A stretch of 64,000 nucleotides of DNA from a phage (GCA_027337125.1 GCA_027337125.1_3057.1), one strand, 5' to 3'. Shown: positions 5,981 through 45,387, numbered from the stretch's first letter. Notes: a model not told the origin generated them from the letters alone. Numbers and translations are program-made.

Positions 5981-6346
5981 ATGAACTACATCAACTTTGA
6001 ACGTAAATATGTTTCTAATGGTATTGCAGGTTCTATTGATACTATCTGCCTTTGGAAACATCAAAATGGATCAGTATGCGAAATTGAACAGTATATGACT
6101 CCTAACTACGTTTATATGCGATTTGAAAATGGCATCACGGTTTCAATCACGAAAGAAGGTTCTTCTTTTAAAATCGCATTAGATGATGATTTCCGTCAAC
6201 GTGATTTAGGTACTCATCCTTGTTGGAATGGCGTCAATCGCAAACTTCTGGTTAAAACTTGGATTCGTCATATTCTGAGTAACAGAGCTAAACCTGAGCA
6301 TCTTGAAGCAATCTTTGATGTAGTTCTTAATGAATTTGATATTTAA
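5981..6346 (+). CDS. hypothetical protein (121 aa)
   Basis: ORF with GGAG RBS; followed by GGGGC-TTCG-GCCCC hairpin. Confidence 0.55.
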   Translation: MNYINFERKYVSNGIAGSIDTICLWKHQNGSVCEIEQYMTPNYVYMRFENGITVSITKEGSSFKIALDDDFRQRDLGTHPCWNGVNRKLLVKTWIRHILSNRAKPEHLEAIFDVVLNEFDI

Positions 6347-6355
6347 AATAAAATA

Positions 6356-6369
6356 GGGGCTTCGGCCCC
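6356..6369 (+). other. UUCG tetraloop hairpin (GGGGC-UUCG-GCCCC), intercistronic
   Basis: Perfect 5-bp stem with TTCG loop; not followed by clear T tract. Confidence 0.5.
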
Positions 6370-6386
6370 TTACTGAGGAAAATACT

Positions 6387-6674
6387 ATGTTTATGACTAC
6401 TTATTTTGATACTCGTAAAAATTTTTGCGAAGTAGTTTTCTCTAAGGCGCCTAAAGACCTTCCTGCTCATTTGCAGCCTACCAGTGAATCGATTAAAAAC
6501 TATGTTAATGCAGTCTGCCCTTTAGAGTTCCGTACTGTAAATGGGCGTGATACTCTAGCTATCGCTAAACTCAATCGTGAAATTGACATTGACCCTTCAA
6601 TTGCGCGTGAAATTAACATTTCTGATATTGACGGCGGTAATGTTAAATCGCATGGTTTTCAGATGAGGTTCTAA
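6387..6674 (+). CDS. hypothetical protein (95 aa)
   Basis: ORF with GAGGAA RBS. Confidence 0.5.
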   Translation: MFMTTYFDTRKNFCEVVFSKAPKDLPAHLQPTSESIKNYVNAVCPLEFRTVNGRDTLAIAKLNREIDIDPSIAREINISDIDGGNVKSHGFQMRF

Positions 6675-12432: not shown

Positions 12433-14490
12433 ATGGAACTTATTACAGAATTATTTGACGGCGCTTCGGCGCCGGTTGTTAACTTAAATCCTAAGCATAA
12501 AATACCTCAAATTTTTGCTATTCAAGCAGGCGAAGAAAGCGTGCTTCCTGGATTTAGATTTTGTACATACACCTCTGGCGGTGATACAAATAAAAACGTT
12601 AAGCCAGGCGATAAAATGATGCATATCGTAATGATAGGTGTCAATGAAAAGCTATCATTAGTTAAACTTAAAAACTTGGGTGGAAATCCAATTGGTGTTA
12701 TTAATGCGGTTTTTGATACTGCTCTTCAAACAATGAAACAGTATAAAATTGACGCATGCCTATTCCGCGTACTAAAGAGTAAAACAAACGGTGCAGCTCG
12801 TCAAATGCAAGTTATTGCTGACCGTTTAGTACGTACTAAAGGAGCAGGTCGATATGTTCTTTTAAAGGAAATCTGGGACTATGATAAGAAATATGCATAT
12901 ATTATGGTTTACCGTAAAAATGCCAATTTAGAAGACATTCCAGGTGTACCTCCTATTTCAACTGAGTTATTCACAAAAGTTGAATCAAAGGTTGGTGATG
13001 TTTATGTAGACGTTAAAACAGGTAATGCTGTTCCTAAAGCTGTTGCTGTTGCCGCTTCTATTGCTCTAGAAAATGATAAGCGCACGGATCAAGCTGTTAT
13101 TCAGAAAACTAAAATTAGTCGTCGATTAGCAGCACAAGCTCAATATTCTACTGTCGATGCTTCACTTCAGGGTGATAGCTTCGCCGCTAAGAAATATCAA
13201 GAGTTTGAATCTAAAGTTCCAGTATATAAAGCAGAAGGACCAATGAACTCTGGTGTTATTCAGATTGGTTCAAATTTCAGCAAAGGAGCTATAGGTGGTA
13301 TGAGGAGTGCTTCTCGTTTTAAATCTAATGATTATGAACTAGAAAGCTTCCGAAATCATATTGCATTAGCTCATGCACGTTTACGTGATCCATCTATCAA
13401 GTTACAGAGCGATATATCATATCAAGGTTCTCAAGAATATTTAAAGAATAAAGAATTTTTTGATTATAAAACTGATAAAATTTTAAGTGATCTTGCTGAC
13501 ATTAATATTTCTAATAGCTTTGATGTTATTAAGAAAATTGTCAATGATTTAGTTAAAGGTTCTAAAGCCACACCAGATGAAAAGGTAGCTATTGTTCAAT
13601 TTGTCATGAATGGCGTTTATAAATTGATTAATGAGTCTGCTTCTCAAGCGTATGAATATGCAAGTACTGAAGTAACTCCAAAAGGATTAACTCAGGCTGA
13701 GTCTGATGTAATTGAAGATTATTGTGCAGATTCATATGTTGAAATGAACTCGTTCCTTTTAGGTAAACCGGATTCTACCCGTGAAGAATATATGGAACGA
13801 GCTATTAAACACATCGAGACAATGGATTCTGCCTTTGCCAAAGGATCAGTTCTTCCTCCAGGAACTACGCTTTACCGTGGACAAGAAGTTACATTTAAAA
13901 CTTTACGTCATAATATTGAAAATAAAATGTTCTACTTCAAGAACTTCGTATCCACATCGCTTAAACCAAATATCTTCGGTGAGTATGGTAAAAACTATAT
14001 GGCTCTAGATGATTCCGGCGCAGTATTTTCTGGTGAAGGAGAAGGTTCAGTTGACGCAGAAGATTTGATGCATATGGGCAGTCACTCTGCTTATGCGAAT
14101 GAAGATGCTGAAACTAGCGTGGGTATGGTAATTAAAGGAGCTGAGCGAATCAAAGTTATCGTTCCAGGACATTTATCAGGATTTCCATCAGAAGCTGAAG
14201 TTATTTTACCGCGTGGAATTTTGCTGAAGATTAATAAAGTGAGTACGTACATGATGAAAGAAACTGCTTATAATAAGTATCTAATCGAAGGCACAATCGT
14301 TCCTCCTTCTGAACAATTAGAAGAATCGGTATATGATGGCGACCATCTAATGGAAACTGGTGAAGTTCGTCCAATGGCTGGATTTAATCAATTCCTTGTA
14401 GAAGAATCAAAAGAAGAGGAAAACGAAGTTTCTCAAATCTTGGCTTCTTTGGTTAACATCAACGGAATGTCTAAAAAGTTCAAAATGTAG
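12433..14490 (+). CDS. Alt-like ADP-ribosyltransferase paralog
   Basis: 685 aa; first ~230 aa clearly homologous to Alt (MELITELFD..., QYKIDAC..., GRYVLLKE.WDYDKKYAYI...); divergent C-terminal ART domain retaining YRGQ, FVSTSL, EAEVILPRG. Confidence 0.85.
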   Translation: MELITELFDGASAPVVNLNPKHKIPQIFAIQAGEESVLPGFRFCTYTSGGDTNKNVKPGDKMMHIVMIGVNEKLSLVKLKNLGGNPIGVINAVFDTALQTMKQYKIDACLFRVLKSKTNGAARQMQVIADRLVRTKGAGRYVLLKEIWDYDKKYAYIMVYRKNANLEDIPGVPPISTELFTKVESKVGDVYVDVKTGNAVPKAVAVAASIALENDKRTDQAVIQKTKISRRLAAQAQYSTVDASLQGDSFAAKKYQEFESKVPVYKAEGPMNSGVIQIGSNFSKGAIGGMRSASRFKSNDYELESFRNHIALAHARLRDPSIKLQSDISYQGSQEYLKNKEFFDYKTDKILSDLADINISNSFDVIKKIVNDLVKGSKATPDEKVAIVQFVMNGVYKLINESASQAYEYASTEVTPKGLTQAESDVIEDYCADSYVEMNSFLLGKPDSTREEYMERAIKHIETMDSAFAKGSVLPPGTTLYRGQEVTFKTLRHNIENKMFYFKNFVSTSLKPNIFGEYGKNYMALDDSGAVFSGEGEGSVDAEDLMHMGSHSAYANEDAETSVGMVIKGAERIKVIVPGHLSGFPSEAEVILPRGILLKINKVSTYMMKETAYNKYLIEGTIVPPSEQLEESVYDGDHLMETGEVRPMAGFNQFLVEESKEEENEVSQILASLVNINGMSKKFKM

Positions 14491-23370: not shown

Positions 23371-23383
23371 CTTTTTCTCCAAA

Positions 23384-23395
23384 GGGCCGAAGCCC
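23384..23395 (-). other. short UUCG tetraloop hairpin between HNH gene stop and uvsW.1 RBS
   Basis: + strand GGGCCGAAGCCC; - strand reads GGGC-UUCG-GCCC. Confidence 0.45.
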
Positions 23396-24088
23396 TTATA
23401 AATTAACTGTTTTTCTAAGTATTCTTAGTTTGTACATTGATAATCCAGTAGCTTTAGAAGCATCTTTCATGCATTTATACTTAACACCATTTATTTCTAT
23501 AGGTTTAGCAGCTGGGTTATTAGCTCCTGAATTATCTGGCATGTTATCTTTAATTTTCTGAATAGATTTAGCGGAATGTTTCCTTCCATACATGCCATTA
23601 TTTTTACCTGATTGATTGATAGAATGCAATCTTTTAGCTTCTTCAGTCCATTTTGTTGGGTTCATTCTTTTAGTTTTACTAATTTTACTTCCCCACGTAA
23701 TTGGACGATTTTTCATGAGTTTTGACATATATTGTTTATGTTCTTCCGTATGGTGTTTTCCGTAAAATGGATTGCCTTCACCTGATTGAAGTTCTGCCAT
23801 TTTACGACGTTCCCAGGCGTAAGATTTATTAACGTGTCTTTCATGAGTCTTTGAATTCATCCCCATACATATAACGGCTTTAATTATACCGTAATGGTTC
23901 GGATGAATTTTAGCTAAAAGTTTATGAGCTATAAAATGCTCTTCAGCTGTTAGTTCTACCAAATTACACTTATCATCTGTACCGCCCATACATCTAGGAA
24001 TTATATGATGAGTTTCAGTGTATCCATTAAGGCGAGCCCGATTCTGGGCTCTATTAATTAAATTATCGTATATTAATTTATAATTCAA
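23396..24088 (-). CDS. freestanding HNH homing endonuclease (Mob-like, with NUMOD-like repeats)
   Basis: 230 aa; HNH core YTETHHIIPRCMGGTDDKCNLVELTAEEHFIAHKLL; C-terminal repeats NPFYGKHHTEEHK / NGMYGRKHSAKS; start overlaps uvsW stop. Confidence 0.85.
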   Translation of the reverse strand: MNYKLIYDNLINRAQNRARLNGYTETHHIIPRCMGGTDDKCNLVELTAEEHFIAHKLLAKIHPNHYGIIKAVICMGMNSKTHERHVNKSYAWERRKMAELQSGEGNPFYGKHHTEEHKQYMSKLMKNRPITWGSKISKTKRMNPTKWTEEAKRLHSINQSGKNNGMYGRKHSAKSIQKIKDNMPDNSGANNPAAKPIEINGVKYKCMKDASKATGLSMYKLRILRKTVNL

Positions 24089-25595: not shown

Positions 25596-26213
25596 TTATG
25601 CCTTACTAAATTTGCCTTTAGAGTCTCTTTTCATGAGACGACCTTTAATAAATCCGTCGGGAATAATACCGTCTGGTTGTATTAATTTATTTATTGCACC
25701 ATTATTGACCCAAAAAGTTCCTGTGGTAGTCGGTTTGACTTTACATCCTTTTCTGGACTTTCTATTAGGATGAACCATCCCTTTTACAAATCCTTCTGGA
25801 ACAAGTTCTCCAGGTTTAATAAAAATATTTTTAGTTCCATTAGTGTAACAAGTTGCACCTAATACCGTGCCCGGTGAGTTTTCAAATCTCTTAGCGGAAG
25901 ATTCTTTCATCTTTGATATAACCTCTGTAGTCATAACAATTCCGCCAATTCCGCCAGGTTTCATATTATAATAATTTTTGCTTTTTATTATTTCAGGAGT
26001 TATAATTTCTTCTTCATACATGTACGCTTCTTCGGAAGTTTTAAACTCTTTTAGTATTGTTCTAGAGAAATTGTTTTCACCATATTTCTTTATAGCCTGC
26101 TGAATTGCCTTACCGGAACCAAGATAACCATCATTCAAGTCATCAGTAGAGTGTTTTCCTATATACTTTTTACTATTTATTAGATTTGTTGTTTCATATA
26201 CAAAGTGGTACAT
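25596..26213 (-). CDS. segE: GIY-YIG homing endonuclease, SegE-like
   Basis: 205 aa; N-terminal GIY-YIG region FVYETTNLINSKKYIGK...GYLGSG; located between uvsW and inh as T4 segE. Confidence 0.8.
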   Translation of the reverse strand: MYHFVYETTNLINSKKYIGKHSTDDLNDGYLGSGKAIQQAIKKYGENNFSRTILKEFKTSEEAYMYEEEIITPEIIKSKNYYNMKPGGIGGIVMTTEVISKMKESSAKRFENSPGTVLGATCYTNGTKNIFIKPGELVPEGFVKGMVHPNRKSRKGCKVKPTTTGTFWVNNGAINKLIQPDGIIPDGFIKGRLMKRDSKGKFSKA

Positions 26214-26952: not shown

Positions 26953-28083
26953 ATGGCTTTTACAGTTGATATAACTCCTAAAACACCTACTGGAGTTATA
27001 GATCAGACTCAGCAGTTTACTGCTACACCCAGTGGTCAAACTGGAGATGGACCTATTACATATGCTTGGACTGTAGATGATGTTCCACAAGATGGAGCTG
27101 AAGCAACTTTTAGTTATGTACTAAAAGGACCTGCTGGTCAAAAGACTATTAAAGTAGTTGCAACAAACACAGTTCCAGATACTGATGCTGAAACAGCAGA
27201 AGCTACTACAACTATCACAGTTCAAAATAAGACACAGACAACTACCTTAGCTGTAACTCCTGATAGTCCTGCTGCTGGAGTGATTGGAACTCCTGTTGAA
27301 TTTACTGCTGCTTTAGCTTCTCAACCATCAGGCGCATCTGCTACGTATCAATGGTACGTTGACGGTTCTCCTGTGAGCGAAGCAACTTCTGCTACATTCA
27401 ATTACACTCCTACTACAAGCGGAGTTAAAAAAATTAAGTGTGTAGCTCAAGTAACTGCGGCAGATTATGATGCAAAGGAAGTTACTTCCAACGAAGTGTC
27501 ACTGACGGTTAATAAGAAGACAATGAATCCACAGGTTACATTGACTCCTCCTTCTATTAATGTTCAGCAAGATGCTTCGGCTACATTTACTGCTAATGTC
27601 ACTGATGCCCCGGAAGAAGCGCAAATTACGTATTCATGGAAGAAAGATTCTTCTCCTGTAGAAGGGTCAACTAATGTATACACTGTTGATACATCATCTA
27701 TTGGAAGTCAAACCATTGAAGTTACTGCAACTGTTACCGCTACTGACTATGATAGCAAAACTATTACAGCAGAAGGTCAAGTTCAGGTAACTGATAAAGT
27801 TGCTCCAGAACCAGAAGGTGAATTGCCTTATGTTCATCCTCTTCCACATCGTACTTCAGCTTACATCTGGTGTGGTTGGTGGGTTATGGATGAAATCCAA
27901 AAAATGACTGAAGAAGGTAAAGATTGGAAAACTGAAGATCCAGATAGTAAATATTACTTGCATCGTTACACTCTTCAGAAGATGATGAAAGACTATCCAG
28001 AAGTTGATGTTCAAGAATCACGTAATGGATACATCATTCATAAAACTGCTTTAGAAACTGGTATCATCTATACCTATCCATAA
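26953..28083 (+). CDS. hoc: Hoc, highly immunogenic outer capsid protein
   Basis: 376 aa; begins MAFTVDITPKTPTGVIDQTQQFTATPSGQTG..., repeated Ig-like modules; matches T4 Hoc length. Confidence 0.9.
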   Translation: MAFTVDITPKTPTGVIDQTQQFTATPSGQTGDGPITYAWTVDDVPQDGAEATFSYVLKGPAGQKTIKVVATNTVPDTDAETAEATTTITVQNKTQTTTLAVTPDSPAAGVIGTPVEFTAALASQPSGASATYQWYVDGSPVSEATSATFNYTPTTSGVKKIKCVAQVTAADYDAKEVTSNEVSLTVNKKTMNPQVTLTPPSINVQQDASATFTANVTDAPEEAQITYSWKKDSSPVEGSTNVYTVDTSSIGSQTIEVTATVTATDYDSKTITAEGQVQVTDKVAPEPEGELPYVHPLPHRTSAYIWCGWWVMDEIQKMTEEGKDWKTEDPDSKYYLHRYTLQKMMKDYPEVDVQESRNGYIIHKTALETGIIYTYP

Positions 28084-28089
28084 TCATAA

Positions 28090-28112
28090 GGGGCTTCGGC
28101 CCCTTTCTTCAT
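28090..28112 (+). terminator. rho-independent terminator after hoc
   Basis: GGGGC-TTCG-GCCCC followed by TTTCTTCATTTT. Confidence 0.6.
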
Positions 28113-36438: not shown

Positions 36439-36930
36439 TTATTCCCAATAATCGAGAGCGAGAGTTACTTCAAAGGTTTGGATTTCATTGTTTGAATCCC
36501 AATCTAACTGAAGTTCACCCACGTTAGTAGGCCACAGGCCTTTAATTTCGACTTCTTTTGTTACAGTTTTAGCGTCACGAGCATATTGGCGTACAATAGC
36601 ACTCTTTTTATACTCTGCTGGTTTTCCACCAGTAATTTCGTTTCCTTGCCCAGCAGCAATGCTTTGCCAGTCAACAAACTTCTGGCGTGCATCATGCGCC
36701 TCATCATTCATTACTGTAATAGTCCAGTCATCGAATGTACGATCGCCTGCTACGTTAATTTTACGGTTCATAAATCCGACTGGAATTTTTTCTACAATAC
36801 CAGCTGGTAAAGCAGTGGCTTTACATTGAAACGTAAAATTTTGTCCAAGATAAGAAATTTCTACTTGGAATAAGTTAGGTCGAGCAAAATCACCAGATTC
36901 AAACGCTCGTGTTACATCATCTACAAACAT
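36439..36930 (-). CDS. 19: tail tube protein gp19
   Basis: 163 aa matching T4 gp19. Confidence 0.9.
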   Translation of the reverse strand: MFVDDVTRAFESGDFARPNLFQVEISYLGQNFTFQCKATALPAGIVEKIPVGFMNRKINVAGDRTFDDWTITVMNDEAHDARQKFVDWQSIAAGQGNEITGGKPAEYKKSAIVRQYARDAKTVTKEVEIKGLWPTNVGELQLDWDSNNEIQTFEVTLALDYWE

Positions 36931-36944
36931 ATTAGCCTCTGTAG

Positions 36945-37011
36945 TATTTATATCCCTATGTTTAACCTAGGGCATATAGAATTAAAGAATTAAGGATATA
37001 GTGTATTTATA
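36945..37011 (-). promoter_or_regulatory. two candidate late promoters (TATAAATA) upstream of gene 19
   Basis: + strand TATTTATA at 36945-36952 and 37004-37011; second abuts GGCCTG-ccgaaa-CAGGCC hairpin. Confidence 0.5.
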
Positions 37012-37037
37012 TGGCCTGCCGAAACAGGCCTTTAGAA

Positions 37038-37676
37038 TCATTCTAGTAAATCCCAAAGATCTACGCTATTTCTTTTTGACTTTTCTCGGTTAGATTCCCA
37101 AGTGATTATTTCTAAATTTTTTACGCTTGCTATAATTTCCGGTGGAATTAAATTATCAAATCCATATTTGATAGATACTTTATGATCGAGTTGGTAAGCA
37201 CCTTCTACACCACACACTCCTATTTTATCAGCATTCGGCCATTTTGACCAAATTTTTCTTATTTTAGCTGACTTAGTTATAGAATGAACTCTACTAGCAT
37301 ATAATGCAAACTCTTTTCTTTTACCAGTCCATCGAGGATGTTTATCGCCTCTTTGCCATGGTCTGCTTATTCCAGATTGAACTTCCGAATTTTTAATAGC
37401 AACTTGTTTAATGCTACATTTTCTACATGCGTGGGTGGGTGTTCTATTTAAAAGCTGAATGCTTCTACTAAATTTAACACCACACAAATCGCATTTAGCG
37501 TCAACTATTTTATTACTATTCTTTGGCATTAATTCTATTGGAACAGATATTGTATCATGATATGATACTTTATATCCCAGAATTGTCGACCACATTTTTG
37601 AATGATTTCTTGGTTTTATTGTAACAAACTTAGAAATAATCACTTGTTTCCTCGATAATAGGGGCCGAAGCCCCAT
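37038..37676 (-). CDS. freestanding HNH-family endonuclease with N-terminal Cys4 zinc finger
   Basis: About 212 aa from ATG (214 from TTG at 37682); CDLCG...CRKC zinc motif; C-terminal QLDHKVSIKYGFDN...NLEIITWESNREK His-Me finger-like; inserted between genes 18 and 19. Confidence 0.72.
   Translation of the reverse strand: MGLRPLLSRKQVIISKFVTIKPRNHSKMWSTILGYKVSYHDTISVPIELMPKNSNKIVDAKCDLCGVKFSRSIQLLNRTPTHACRKCSIKQVAIKNSEVQSGISRPWQRGDKHPRWTGKRKEFALYASRVHSITKSAKIRKIWSKWPNADKIGVCGVEGAYQLDHKVSIKYGFDNLIPPEIIASVKNLEIITWESNREKSKRNSVDLWDLLE
37661..37674 (-). promoter_or_regulatory. UUCG tetraloop hairpin overlapping start codon of the HNH gene (possible translational occlusion)
   Basis: - strand reads AUG-GGG-CUU-CGG-CCC-C; stem GGGGC/GCCCC includes the G of AUG. 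Confidence 0.5.
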
Positions 37677-37686
37677 AATCAATCAA

Positions 37687-39666
37687 TTAACCTGCAAGAC
37701 CAGTCAACTCATCGAAATCTGCACCAGTAGCAGTTGCGACGAAATTAAGTTGGATATAATTTATACTACGAGCCGGTTGGATGTAGAATGTTGCAACAAA
37801 CTCATTTCTATCAATTACTGACGGAGTATTATTTGTTGTATCGCAAACTACACGATATTCATAAATTCCACCGAGAGCTTTAATTCCCTGTAAGTATTGG
37901 GCAGTTTCTGTGCGGAATGATGAACGAGTAAACGCGTTGTTTAATTCGAACAAACGATATTTTGAACTACGTCCGATATTCGTTTTCAACATATTAAACA
38001 GACGGCGAACGTTAATACGATCAAATGGAGAAGGAACAGAAGTAGCTGTTTTATCACCATACAATACGTAACCATCACCACCGGTACCAGTTACAGGGTT
38101 AATAGCTTCTTGATATAAGCGGTCACGCTGAGATTGGCGAGTTTCAATAGCAAGTTTAATAACGTTCAGAATTTGACCACGATTATAACCAGCTGGTGAC
38201 ATCCAAGTTTGAGAAACATTATCAGTTCTTGCGCACAATCCAGCAATATCAGCTGCTAATGGAACCCAACGATTCACATCATTATATTTGTCATACTGAT
38301 ATTTGTAGTTACCATCAATTGCTGCATAGGTTGAACTAATATTAAAGTTATTATCAGTATATGAACCTGCGGCAGTTCTCCAGTTAACTAAATTATCTAC
38401 TGCACGAGTTACAGGAATTCCAACTACAGTTTCACGTGGAGGAGAGCACAATACTAAGCAATCTTGACGAGCATCACCAATTGAAACAACATGTTTTTGA
38501 ACAGTAGATGCTGTTTCAAGAGATTCACCGGCACAAGAACCAGCAATAAACAACTGAACATCTACAGATTCACGGTCAGCAAAGAAGTCCCATGCTTCCA
38601 TCAAATCTCCTGCTGTTACTTCAGCATTTGATGATAACCCACCAGACAGAGTTAAAATTCCAGAGAATCCTTCTGGCCAGTTTTGTGCAGTTGCAAAAAT
38701 ATATTCTGAACCACCTTTTGCGAAAAAGTCATCGATATAGATGTTACTATCGTAAATATCTTTTTCACCACGCTTAGTTGAAAGAACAATGCTTTGAACA
38801 ATAGCATCATTTCGACGAACTATAATTGCGTACTGTGAGTCAGTCTGCGGTCCATATCCAAACACTGCCTTGGCAGTAGATGCACGAGTACCACCACCTG
38901 GATAAATTGGGAGTAATGCAGAAGCGCCTTTCGCGTAGTCAGCTTTAGATACGATTTCAATTTCAATTTTATCGCCTAATTCGCCTGGATAAAGAGCTAC
39001 TACTCCTGGAATTCCATATTTTTTAAGATTTTCCTGAAAATCAACAGCTGTTATAGCAGCTTCAGCATTTTCAATTTCAGCTAATAAAATACCAGAATCA
39101 GTAATAATTTTTCCAAGAGTTATTACTGCAGCTAAACCAGAGGAAGATGAAGAAACTTCAGCGGTCCAGTTAGAACCTAATTCCGGATATTCACCGACTT
39201 CTTTCGCTTTAGCGATAATTTTTGCAGTAGGAATATTAATTTTCTTAATTTTTCCATCAGCATCTACTTCGGTAATTTTACCTTCCGTTTCAATGTCTTC
39301 TGAAACATACTTAACTGTGATTTTATCTCCAACCGCGTAGTTACTACCTGGGGTAGAAATAGTGTATTCAATATTACCAGCAATCGGAGATGAGTTTTTA
39401 GCGGTATCTCTATCGACAGCACGCACAACTCGCAAATCATTTCCATATTGTAAGAAATTCATTGCAGACATAAAATAGTCAGCAGTTTCAGCTGTAGGTT
39501 GACCAAAAGTATTAACTAAATCTACTTCATTTGTAACCTGTTTAATTTGAAAAGCAGGACCCCACTGGAATTTACCGGCCAAAGCTGCTGTACCAGTAGA
39601 GTTATTAACCACGGTGCTTTGAACCGTAGTTTCTTTGAGCTCAATGCCCGGAGATAATAAAGTCAT
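37687..39666 (-). CDS. 18: tail sheath protein gp18
   Basis: 659 aa matching T4 gp18. Confidence 0.95.
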   Translation of the reverse strand: MTLLSPGIELKETTVQSTVVNNSTGTAALAGKFQWGPAFQIKQVTNEVDLVNTFGQPTAETADYFMSAMNFLQYGNDLRVVRAVDRDTAKNSSPIAGNIEYTISTPGSNYAVGDKITVKYVSEDIETEGKITEVDADGKIKKINIPTAKIIAKAKEVGEYPELGSNWTAEVSSSSSGLAAVITLGKIITDSGILLAEIENAEAAITAVDFQENLKKYGIPGVVALYPGELGDKIEIEIVSKADYAKGASALLPIYPGGGTRASTAKAVFGYGPQTDSQYAIIVRRNDAIVQSIVLSTKRGEKDIYDSNIYIDDFFAKGGSEYIFATAQNWPEGFSGILTLSGGLSSNAEVTAGDLMEAWDFFADRESVDVQLFIAGSCAGESLETASTVQKHVVSIGDARQDCLVLCSPPRETVVGIPVTRAVDNLVNWRTAAGSYTDNNFNISSTYAAIDGNYKYQYDKYNDVNRWVPLAADIAGLCARTDNVSQTWMSPAGYNRGQILNVIKLAIETRQSQRDRLYQEAINPVTGTGGDGYVLYGDKTATSVPSPFDRINVRRLFNMLKTNIGRSSKYRLFELNNAFTRSSFRTETAQYLQGIKALGGIYEYRVVCDTTNNTPSVIDRNEFVATFYIQPARSINYIQLNFVATATGADFDELTGLAG

Positions 39667-39694: not shown

Positions 39695-42835
<3,141 letters not shown>

Positions 42836-42876: not shown

Positions 42877-45387
<2,511 letters not shown>

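Follow-up and report, generated by a model that had tools for sequence, protein, structure and literature searches.

A putative homing-endonuclease-type gene cassette inserted between the tail sheath and tail tube genes of a T6-like phage

Genes 18 and 19, encoding the tail sheath and the tail tube, are neighbors in phage T4. What is the open reading frame that separates them in the phage DNA studied here, where does its translation start, and is it a mobile element? The original prediction had seen in it an HNH endonuclease gene whose start codon is buried in a hairpin. The window, that is the whole 64,000-nucleotide stretch that was analyzed, corresponds to a T6-like Tequatrovirus and carries the late structural genes on the minus strand. 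As predicted, the ORF lies between gp18 and gp19, on this strand. The locus is organized as follows.

37687..39666, minus strand: gp18 (tail sheath), with its TAA stop codon at 37689-37687
37039..37686, minus strand: cassette of 648 nt, absent from T4, with boundaries set by comparison to T4 (NC_000866) and to five further empty loci
37038..37682, minus strand: mechanically called ORF, 214 aa from a TTG or 212 aa from the ATG at 37676
36439..36930, minus strand: gp19 (tail tube)

Comparison of the 18-19 junction with that of insert-less relatives, proposed earlier as a check, gave precise insert boundaries with respect to T4 and to the five other empty loci. The T4 sequence at the junction is GGTTAA-TACGGTGC-ATTCTAAAGGCCTGTTTCGGCAGGCCATATAAATAC. 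In the T4 alignment, the empty junction is GGTTAA/TACGGTGC/ATTCTAAAGG; its central 8 nt, TACGGTGC, give way to the 648-nt cassette, and the window is identical to T4, base for base, from ATTCTAAAGG through to the ATG codon of gene 19. After the TAA codon of gp18, the minus strand of the window reads TTGATTGATT-ATG-GGGCTTCGGCCCC-TATTATC-GAGGAAA-CAA-GTG-ATT-ATT. Relative to T4, the cassette is an optional insert located directly after the stop codon of gene 18. It consists of a C(UUCG)G hairpin, a Shine-Dalgarno sequence and an ORF of 201 aa.

A second hairpin and two late-promoter boxes TATAAATA are found downstream of the stop codon of the ORF, and it had been proposed that they restore the expression of gene 19.

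37013..37030, minus strand: hairpin GGCCUGU-UUCG-GCAGGCC, native post-gene-18 element, identical in T4 and not part of the insert
37004..37011, minus strand: distal late-promoter box TATAAATA, native, identical in T4
36945..36952, minus strand: proximal late-promoter box TATAAATA, native, identical in T4, 14 nt upstream of the gene 19 ATG
39695-39702, minus strand: late-promoter box of gene 18

These downstream elements are indeed present. Because the hairpin and both boxes are identical in insert-less T4, they are native to the 18-19 intergenic region, do not belong to the insert and do not compensate for it. The cassette has simply been inserted ahead of the native control region of gene 19. 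The native hairpin has a fold energy of -12.8 kcal/mol (z=-3.1). Its version in a more distant relative (L019) shows compensatory changes, GGGCUAU...GUAGCCC, indicating that the native hairpin is functional independently of the cassette.

We then looked at the distribution of the insert. In the phage collection, the junction is empty and T4-type in 382 records. It contains the T6-type allele, which is that of the window, in 70 records and an RB9-type allele in 48. The ORF is missing from about three quarters of the close relatives, in which the junction is clean. Carriers of the T6-type allele include T6, Yersinia phage PST and ECML-134. Gelderlandvirus is a second lineage with a cassette at the same point, as seen by comparing an empty locus (L020) with the filled one of STP4-a. 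Overall, at least three lineages have empty and filled genomes side by side. Such a presence/absence polymorphism with precise boundaries among close relatives is a feature by which free-standing homing endonuclease genes are recognized.

Among T6-type alleles, 8-10 synonymous differences are observed versus 1-3 non-synonymous ones. The corresponding omega values, 0.02-0.09, show that the ORF is under purifying selection and is a functional gene. At least 80% of its length is kept in 233 of the 243 phage records; in Salmonella phage S16, only a 106-aa C-terminal fragment is left. The possibility raised against the original prediction, of an ORF conserved in all relatives and under strong purifying selection, is therefore borne out for selection, which is strong, and contradicted for conservation by the empty records.

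The genomic context was examined in 16 cases, comprising the window, T6, Ptacy1496, ten GenBank phages (RB9, UP19, Bp7, phiS, Roth77, STP4-a, AbTZA1, CHI14, AS-zj from Aeromonas and phiM12 from Sinorhizobium) and three metagenomic contigs. In all 16, the homologue directly follows the sheath gene. It is then followed by the tube gene in 15 contexts and by a gene for a 'tail protein' in phiM12. The divergence of the ORF is out of step with that of its neighbors, as seen from identities to the window.

RB9: gp18 98.3%, gp19 98.8%, ORF 49.8%
UP19 (Dhakavirus): gp18 about 72%, gp19 about 73%, ORF 66.5%
Bp7 (Dhakavirus): gp18 about 72%, gp19 about 73%, ORF 32.7%

The position of the ORF within the intergenic region also varies. 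In UP19, T6 and STP4-a, the ORF immediately follows the gp18 stop codon and precedes the native intergenic block. In Bp7, it is downstream of the native block and abuts gp19, as in CHI14 and another locus (L024), where it has its own TATAAATA. As the ORFs of UP19 and Bp7 are on opposite sides of the native block, there are two insertion registers in a single intergenic region. The ORF abuts or overlaps the start of gp19 in CHI14 and in three other loci (L030, L033 and L034).

Finally, the alleles are mosaic. Sliding identity shows that the T6-type and RB9-type alleles have about 90% identical DNA at the 5' end (37615-37700), which includes the hairpin, the Shine-Dalgarno sequence and the first codons, and in the HNH part (37038-37255). 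Between these two regions, the following segment cannot be aligned.

37260..37615, minus strand: central module (N-terminal domain and linker), about 355 nt, DNA unalignable with the RB9-type allele

At the amino acid level, the first 100 codons are 35% identical and the C-terminal part 87%. Another mosaic breakpoint is found in pSs-1. Taken together, the identities, the two registers and the mosaic alleles show that the history of the ORF is discordant with that of the flanking genes, a second feature by which homing genes are recognized.

Does the flanking DNA carry a trace of homing? No flank polymorphism separates 8 carriers from 12 empty genomes. Two sites of gene 18, -55 and -49, seemed fixed with respect to the insert when 9 loci were compared, but this link was lost with 20 loci, because the empty genomes of T2 and PYps15T carry the 'carrier' bases. 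Each allele is found on one flank haplotype, and the same haplotypes also occur in empty genomes. Since carriers and empty genomes do not differ in this respect, there is no sign of immunity through variation of the target site, nor can a co-conversion tract be demonstrated; if the enzyme homes, protection must come from the insert splitting its site. The C-terminus of gp18, LNFVAT(A/S)TGADFDEL, is conserved in nearly all genera examined and its coding region lies 10-55 nt from the insertion point. This region is a plausible candidate target.

The protein had been described as having a Cys4 zinc finger and an HNH-like motif. The corresponding motifs, CDLCG...CRKC and LDHKVSIKYGF...NLEIITWESNREK, are both present in the ORF.

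37416..37493, minus strand: Cys4 zinc finger (C51, C54, C73 and C76), treble-clef-like, presumed part of the DNA-binding module
37080..37211, minus strand: His-Me finger or HNH-like domain, residues 145-188, with G145, Q151, D153, H154, G161, N176, L177, W182, N185 and K188 invariant

Alignment of 46 homologues showed almost no variation at the four cysteines, and none at Y115 or at the C-terminal residues listed above. The invariant C-terminal pattern, D-H...N-L...W..N..K, is the motif of the 'HNN' variant of HNH domains, which is devoid of the second histidine and of the zinc-binding cysteines found in many of them. His-Me fingers are characterized by a catalytic histidine ending strand 1, a structural asparagine and a metal-binding asparagine or histidine in the helix; D153-H154, N176-L177 and N185 provide these elements. 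In the AlphaFold2 model (pLDDT 93.1), the motif is carried by two strands and a helix with beta-beta-alpha topology, so that the predicted structure has the beta-beta-alpha-metal fold of the His-Me superfamily.

Sequence searches were of limited yield. The protein matches PHROG 5104 over residues 1-200 (E=1.7e-82), a family annotated as 'unknown function', and 7241 cluster representatives match the ORF family at E<=1e-3. Pfam and NCBIfam searches with the ORF protein returned nothing significant. When the 46 members were considered, 16 matched Pfam DUF4379 (best E=1.3e-4) and four matched Pfam HNH_4 below threshold (E ~0.045). The N-terminal part resembles the treble-clef finger of DUF4379 and mS66, the latter being found in PDB searches, and matches phrog_12131, annotated 'homing endonuclease' (3.9e-7). 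As for the C-terminal domain, a profile search for an HNH or His-Me fold had been proposed as a check. The C-terminal 68 residues of some members, taken alone, match the PHROG of endonuclease VII (2.7e-6) and HNH endonuclease PHROGs (5.4e-5).

Searches of the PDB with phmmer and hmmsearch identified no nuclease, only noise from C2H2 and mS66 zinc fingers. Leucine-rich-repeat proteins matched by the 68-aa C-terminal profile in the PDB were discarded as spurious, because the pattern 'P.eIG.l.NLq.i.w..N' mimics the leucine-rich-repeat consensus and the score is summed over repeats. Foldseek gave no significant match in the PDB. The best structural matches of the C-terminal domain are small HNH nicking endonucleases (Gme HNH, 4h9d, and phage GVE2 HNH, 5h0o). 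A Foldseek search of viral models (BFVD) retrieved homologues, DUF7487 proteins and several annotated HNH or homing endonucleases. The assignment of the protein as an N-terminal zinc finger followed by a C-terminal His-Me/HNH-like domain, as originally proposed, is well supported by the invariant motif, the model and the PHROG matches, albeit with modest scores.

The 5' part of the cassette contains two candidate start codons, one on each side of the hairpin.

37674..37676, minus strand: in-frame ATG overlapping the hairpin, probably unused as a start
37661..37674, minus strand: GGGGC-UUCG-GCCCC (GGGGCUUCGGCCCC) tetraloop hairpin, extending from 12 nt after the gp18 stop codon to 7 nt before the Shine-Dalgarno sequence
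37647..37653, minus strand: Shine-Dalgarno sequence GAGGAAA, with its GAGG core 6 nt upstream of the GTG at 37643
37038..37643, minus strand: coding sequence of 201 aa, with a GTG start and a TGA stop (37040-37038), PHROG 5104

The perfect hairpin was correctly identified in the original prediction. It is also true that an ATG is in frame and that its G (37674) is the first base of the stem. The use of this ATG as the start codon is a different matter. Nothing resembling a Shine-Dalgarno sequence is found upstream of it, the spacer that precedes it is of variable length, and the codon itself is AAG in ECML-134 and GTG in Ptacy1496. The 11 codons (33 nt) between this ATG and the GTG at 37643 are missing from PHROG 5104 and from almost all homologues. 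The first residues of PHROG 5104, and of almost all of the 52 homologues, are M/V-I-I-S-K, at the position of the GTG. The T6, ECML-134 and PST records annotate a 606-nt CDS, the T6 annotation (AXN58201) having the same start. Moreover, GTG-ATT is found at the start in eight of eight type-A loci (T6-type cassette), belonging to four genera. On the basis of the Shine-Dalgarno sequence, the homologue starts, the annotated CDSs, the GTG-ATT conservation and the variability of the ATG, we place the start at GTG 37643; the ATG of the hairpin is probably not a start codon. The start codon of the mechanical ORF is corrected accordingly.

RNA folding of the initiation region, which had been suggested as a check, did not favor sequestration. 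The Shine-Dalgarno sequence and GTG 37643 are outside the stem, and GAGGAAA is unpaired in a 131-nt fold. A lower stem that would occlude the Shine-Dalgarno sequence was considered and rejected. It is absent from the 131-nt fold and seen only in a 55-nt fold, where it is weak and pairs only the first two Shine-Dalgarno bases; an A-to-C change in T6 and RB9 would remove one of its five pairs. Hence, the hairpin at 37661-37674 does not mask the ribosome-binding site.

What then is this hairpin? Hairpins of the C(UUCG)G type were reportedly described between T4 cistrons in 1988. The GGGGC-UUCG-GCCCC sequence, allowing up to two mismatches, occurs five times in the window as compared with 0.06 expected by chance. 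Three copies are exact (37661-37674, 6356-6369 and 28090-28103) and variants are found at 12460 and 23383. The succession of stop codon, hairpin, Shine-Dalgarno sequence and start codon is also observed before ordinary genes at 6346-6390 and 23396-23369. The copy at 28090 follows the stop codon of an ORF (26953-28083) read from gene order as hoc. In addition, a strong hairpin of some kind immediately follows the sheath gene in nearly every distant relative, with or without the ORF. A simple scan for intrinsic terminators flags neither 37661-37674 nor 37013-37030, as no T run follows either of them. For the same reason, a role in RNA 3'-end stability or in partial attenuation is only proposed here.

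The recurrence of this GC stem, closed by a C-G pair around the UUCG loop, between cistrons of the genome, and at two other junctions directly before a Shine-Dalgarno sequence and a start codon, resembles the intercistronic hairpins well known in T4 (PMC4371310, review). Unlike these, the present copy travels with an optional cassette and not with a core gene. We therefore consider that the hairpin at the 5' end of the cassette is, as judged from its sequence and layout, a generic T4 intercistronic C(UUCG)G element. It probably marks or stabilizes the 3' end of the gene 18 message and dampens read-through.

In I-TevI, mobE and segB, a hairpin pairs the ribosome-binding site and a late promoter bypasses or frees it (PMC2988022). 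The locus shares with I-TevI, I-TevII, I-TevIII, segB and mobE a stable hairpin located 5' of an endonuclease ORF on read-through transcripts. In contrast with them, the Shine-Dalgarno sequence and the start codon are here outside the stem, and there is no internal late promoter that would give late transcripts lacking the 5' arm. Among published cases, seg43(25) of Aeromonas phage 25 comes nearest, with an unexplained hairpin just upstream of the ribosome-binding site that does not sequester it (PMC2988022). Initiation at the hairpin ATG, with silencing of read-through translation as in I-TevI, mobE and segB, was the reading of the original prediction. The in-frame ATG leading into a very stable stem and the documented T4 devices make it attractive. 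It is nevertheless highly improbable, given an ATG that is variable, lacks a Shine-Dalgarno sequence and precedes 11 codons absent from almost all homologues, the strong and accessible Shine-Dalgarno sequence and GTG just downstream, the absence of a late promoter positioned to relieve the hairpin, and the identical hairpins that precede ordinary genes in the same layout. More generally, a C(UUCG)G hairpin beside an endonuclease ORF should not automatically be read as a translational silencer. Overall, every sequence feature listed in the original prediction is present in the DNA; three of the interpretations attached to these features fail and two hold.

Regarding expression, no TATAAATA is present on the minus strand between 39695 and 37011, that is from the gene 18 promoter to the ORF. 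Without a promoter of its own, the ORF would depend on late transcripts that start at the gene 18 late promoter and read through into it. Its translation would be low-level because of the GTG start.

Altogether, we favor, with somewhat better than even confidence, the view that the region is a free-standing homing-endonuclease-type gene cassette placed after the stop codon of gene 18, upstream of the native elements of gene 19. From the sequence comparisons, the ORF shows the population-genetic pattern classically associated with homing endonuclease genes and is most likely a selfish, locus-specific element. In a mixed infection, the enzyme would nick or cut either the 18-19 junction of an insert-less genome or the conserved 3' end of gene 18, and recombinational repair would copy the cassette into the cut genome. 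Carriers would be protected from their own enzyme because the insert splits the site.

Some of the same observations could be explained by a conserved beneficial accessory gene of the sheath-tube module, mainly inherited vertically and repeatedly lost, for instance a regulator that binds DNA or RNA, or a nuclease directed against the DNA of the host or of competitors. Such a non-selfish gene would account for the identical position in all 16 contexts, which span several subfamilies and very distant phages, for the strong purifying selection, for the conserved GTG-ATT start and for the ORFs abutting or overlapping gp19 in CHI14 and the three other loci. We consider it unlikely, since the ORF is missing, with a clean junction, from about three quarters of close relatives, its identity is decoupled from that of its flanks, two registers coexist within one genus, the alleles are mosaic, and the combination of a zinc finger and a His-Me nuclease is typical of homing enzymes, with an N-terminal part matching phrog_12131. 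The 'HNN' variant, with its missing second histidine and zinc ligands, and the fragment kept in S16 could suggest a remnant, decaying or domesticated, that is no longer active as a nuclease. The candidate catalytic residues are, however, all invariant in the 46 sequences, omega is well below 1 and nearly all phage records hold most of the length, which makes a remnant very unlikely.

An HNH gene is also found beside the terminase and portal genes of cos phages, and HNH-terminase partnerships were reportedly described in 2014. The gene order terminase (16, 17), sheath, ORF, tube and portal could thus evoke an HNH accessory factor of the DNA packaging machine. This has hardly any likelihood: T4 and most relatives package their DNA without the ORF, packaging is by the headful in T4-type phages, and the 2-kb sheath gene separates the ORF from the terminase. 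Returning to the homing cassette, a bolder and rather doubtful extension would be that the ORF family is a one-locus nuclease lineage, tied to the sheath-tube junction across the whole T4 superfamily, whose insertions occur in two registers and whose DNA-binding modules can be exchanged. The two alleles, T6-type and RB9-type, with their common nuclease domain and distinct N-terminal modules, would then be homing genes that compete for the same site with different target specificities, each able to displace the other as well as to invade empty genomes. If homing were confirmed, this family would offer a clean natural system for asking how a homing gene remains faithful to one intergenic site over long evolutionary distances, how different DNA-binding modules come to be joined to an unchanged nuclease domain, and whether genes of this type cause marker exclusion near the tail genes when T-even phages are crossed. 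What is still of interest is that the family keeps to one locus and that modules have been swapped between its two alleles; the current understanding of phage biology is unchanged by these results.

The relationship with known HNH genes was also considered. The ORF had been assigned to a family different from the Mob-like HNH genes of the window. This holds for the one that was compared, located between genes 13 and 14 (43649-44461): within the window, no paralogue of the ORF is detected by BLASTP, and hhalign of the ORF family against this Mob-like ORF gives a probability of 0.5%. No similarity to the annotated HNH protein of Bp7 was detected by hhalign either. Like MobA-E and Hef, the ORF is a small optional gene between conserved essential genes, sporadic in close relatives, which associates an HNH-type catalytic motif with zinc-finger elements and probably shares their late, low-level expression. 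Unlike in Mob proteins, where HNH is N-terminal and the zinc fingers are C-terminal, the zinc finger is here N-terminal and the HNN domain C-terminal. With this opposite domain order and no homology, the protein does not belong to the T4 Mob family. It is best classed as an uncharacterized kin, by kind, of the free-standing T-even HNH homing genes.

For T6, the survey of Petrov et al. (2010) counts a single 'other HNH' gene, without giving its position (PMC2993671); this entry may be the present ORF. Our literature searches found no paper describing it. The gene is found many times in GenBank, almost everywhere as 'hypothetical protein', with occasional labels such as 'HNH endonuclease', 'homing endonuclease', 'type II restriction endonuclease', 'holin' or 'head morphogenesis protein'. 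The present analysis gives a reasoned annotation to a gene that is 'hypothetical' or mislabelled in well over a hundred T-even phage genomes, including T6, and sets right the labels 'holin', 'head morphogenesis protein' and 'restriction endonuclease'. The same gene, at the same locus and 97-99.5% identical, is T6ORF160 (AXN58201), ORF163 of Yersinia phage PST and '19.1' of Shigella phage vB_SsoM_113.

The locus of phage pSs-1 (L043) carries, at positions 859-960, a T6-type 5' end (GAGGAAACAAGTGATTATTTCTAAGTTTGTT) joined to an RB9-type core of the cassette, the zinc-finger and HNH-like ORF inserted between genes 18 and 19. As read from its sequence, this hybrid shows that the T6-type and RB9-type alleles have recombined within the ORF. 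Upstream of the cassette, about 15 synonymous polymorphisms are clustered at the 3' end of gp18 (37735-37771, minus strand), 46-82 nt upstream of its stop codon. These polymorphisms fall into a few discrete haplotypes. Each cassette allele is found on a single haplotype, but the same haplotypes are also found in genomes without the cassette, such as T2 and PYps15T.

A shorter relative is present in Salmonella phage S16 (UniProt M1HDJ8), where the 106-aa protein corresponds to the C-terminal nuclease domain only (59% identity, TM 0.90). It may be a decaying copy, since the related phage STP4-a has the gene at full length. In the alignment of this C-terminal domain, the segment 'IPPEIIGxIxNLxIIxWExN' resembles the leucine-rich-repeat consensus. 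Because of this mimicry, leucine-rich-repeat proteins were matched by HMMER with scores summed over repeats; these matches are spurious.

Other genes of endonuclease type, one of them only probable, are found in the window:

43649-44461, minus strand: 270-aa ORF, an insert separating genes 13 and 14 of the neck
23396-24088, minus strand: 230-aa ORF with two NUMOD3 motifs (7.7e-14)
25596-26213, minus strand: 205-aa ORF, SegE-like GIY-YIG endonuclease (Pfam SegE_GIY-YIG, 7e-9)

The 270-aa ORF has an HNH motif at its N-terminus (Pfam HNH_4, 1.2e-5) and CxxC zinc-finger repeats at its C-terminus, an architecture that identifies it as a Mob-like homing endonuclease gene. The 230-aa ORF is probably another endonuclease-type gene. 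Among the relatives, Bp7 has a further ORF between gp19 and gp20, annotated 'HNH endonuclease', which had no match in Pfam. In the loci of Bp7 (L012, 4269-6481) and Ptacy1496 (L003, 2946-3901), the annotation splits portal gene 20 into two CDS.

Several hairpins and an inverted repeat were located, in addition to the C(UUCG)G tetraloop hairpin GGGGCTTCGGCCCC at the cassette 5' end:

36953-37000, minus strand: native inverted repeat TATATCCTTA...TAGGGATATA of the 18-19 intergenic region
6356-6369, 28090-28103 and 12460-12473, plus strand: additional exact or near-exact copies of GGGGCTTCGGCCCC
23383-23396: variant hairpin AGGGCTTCGGCCCT, adjoining the stop codon of the 230-aa ORF

The inverted repeat is identical in T4, and the sequence that it pairs takes in the start of the proximal late-promoter box, at 36945-36952. 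The copy at 12460 reads GGCGCTTCGGCGCC and lies 27 nt within ORF 12433-14490 as listed. It is either part of the coding sequence or a sign that this gene begins further downstream. The variant hairpin is followed by GGAG, then by the ATG of the next gene.
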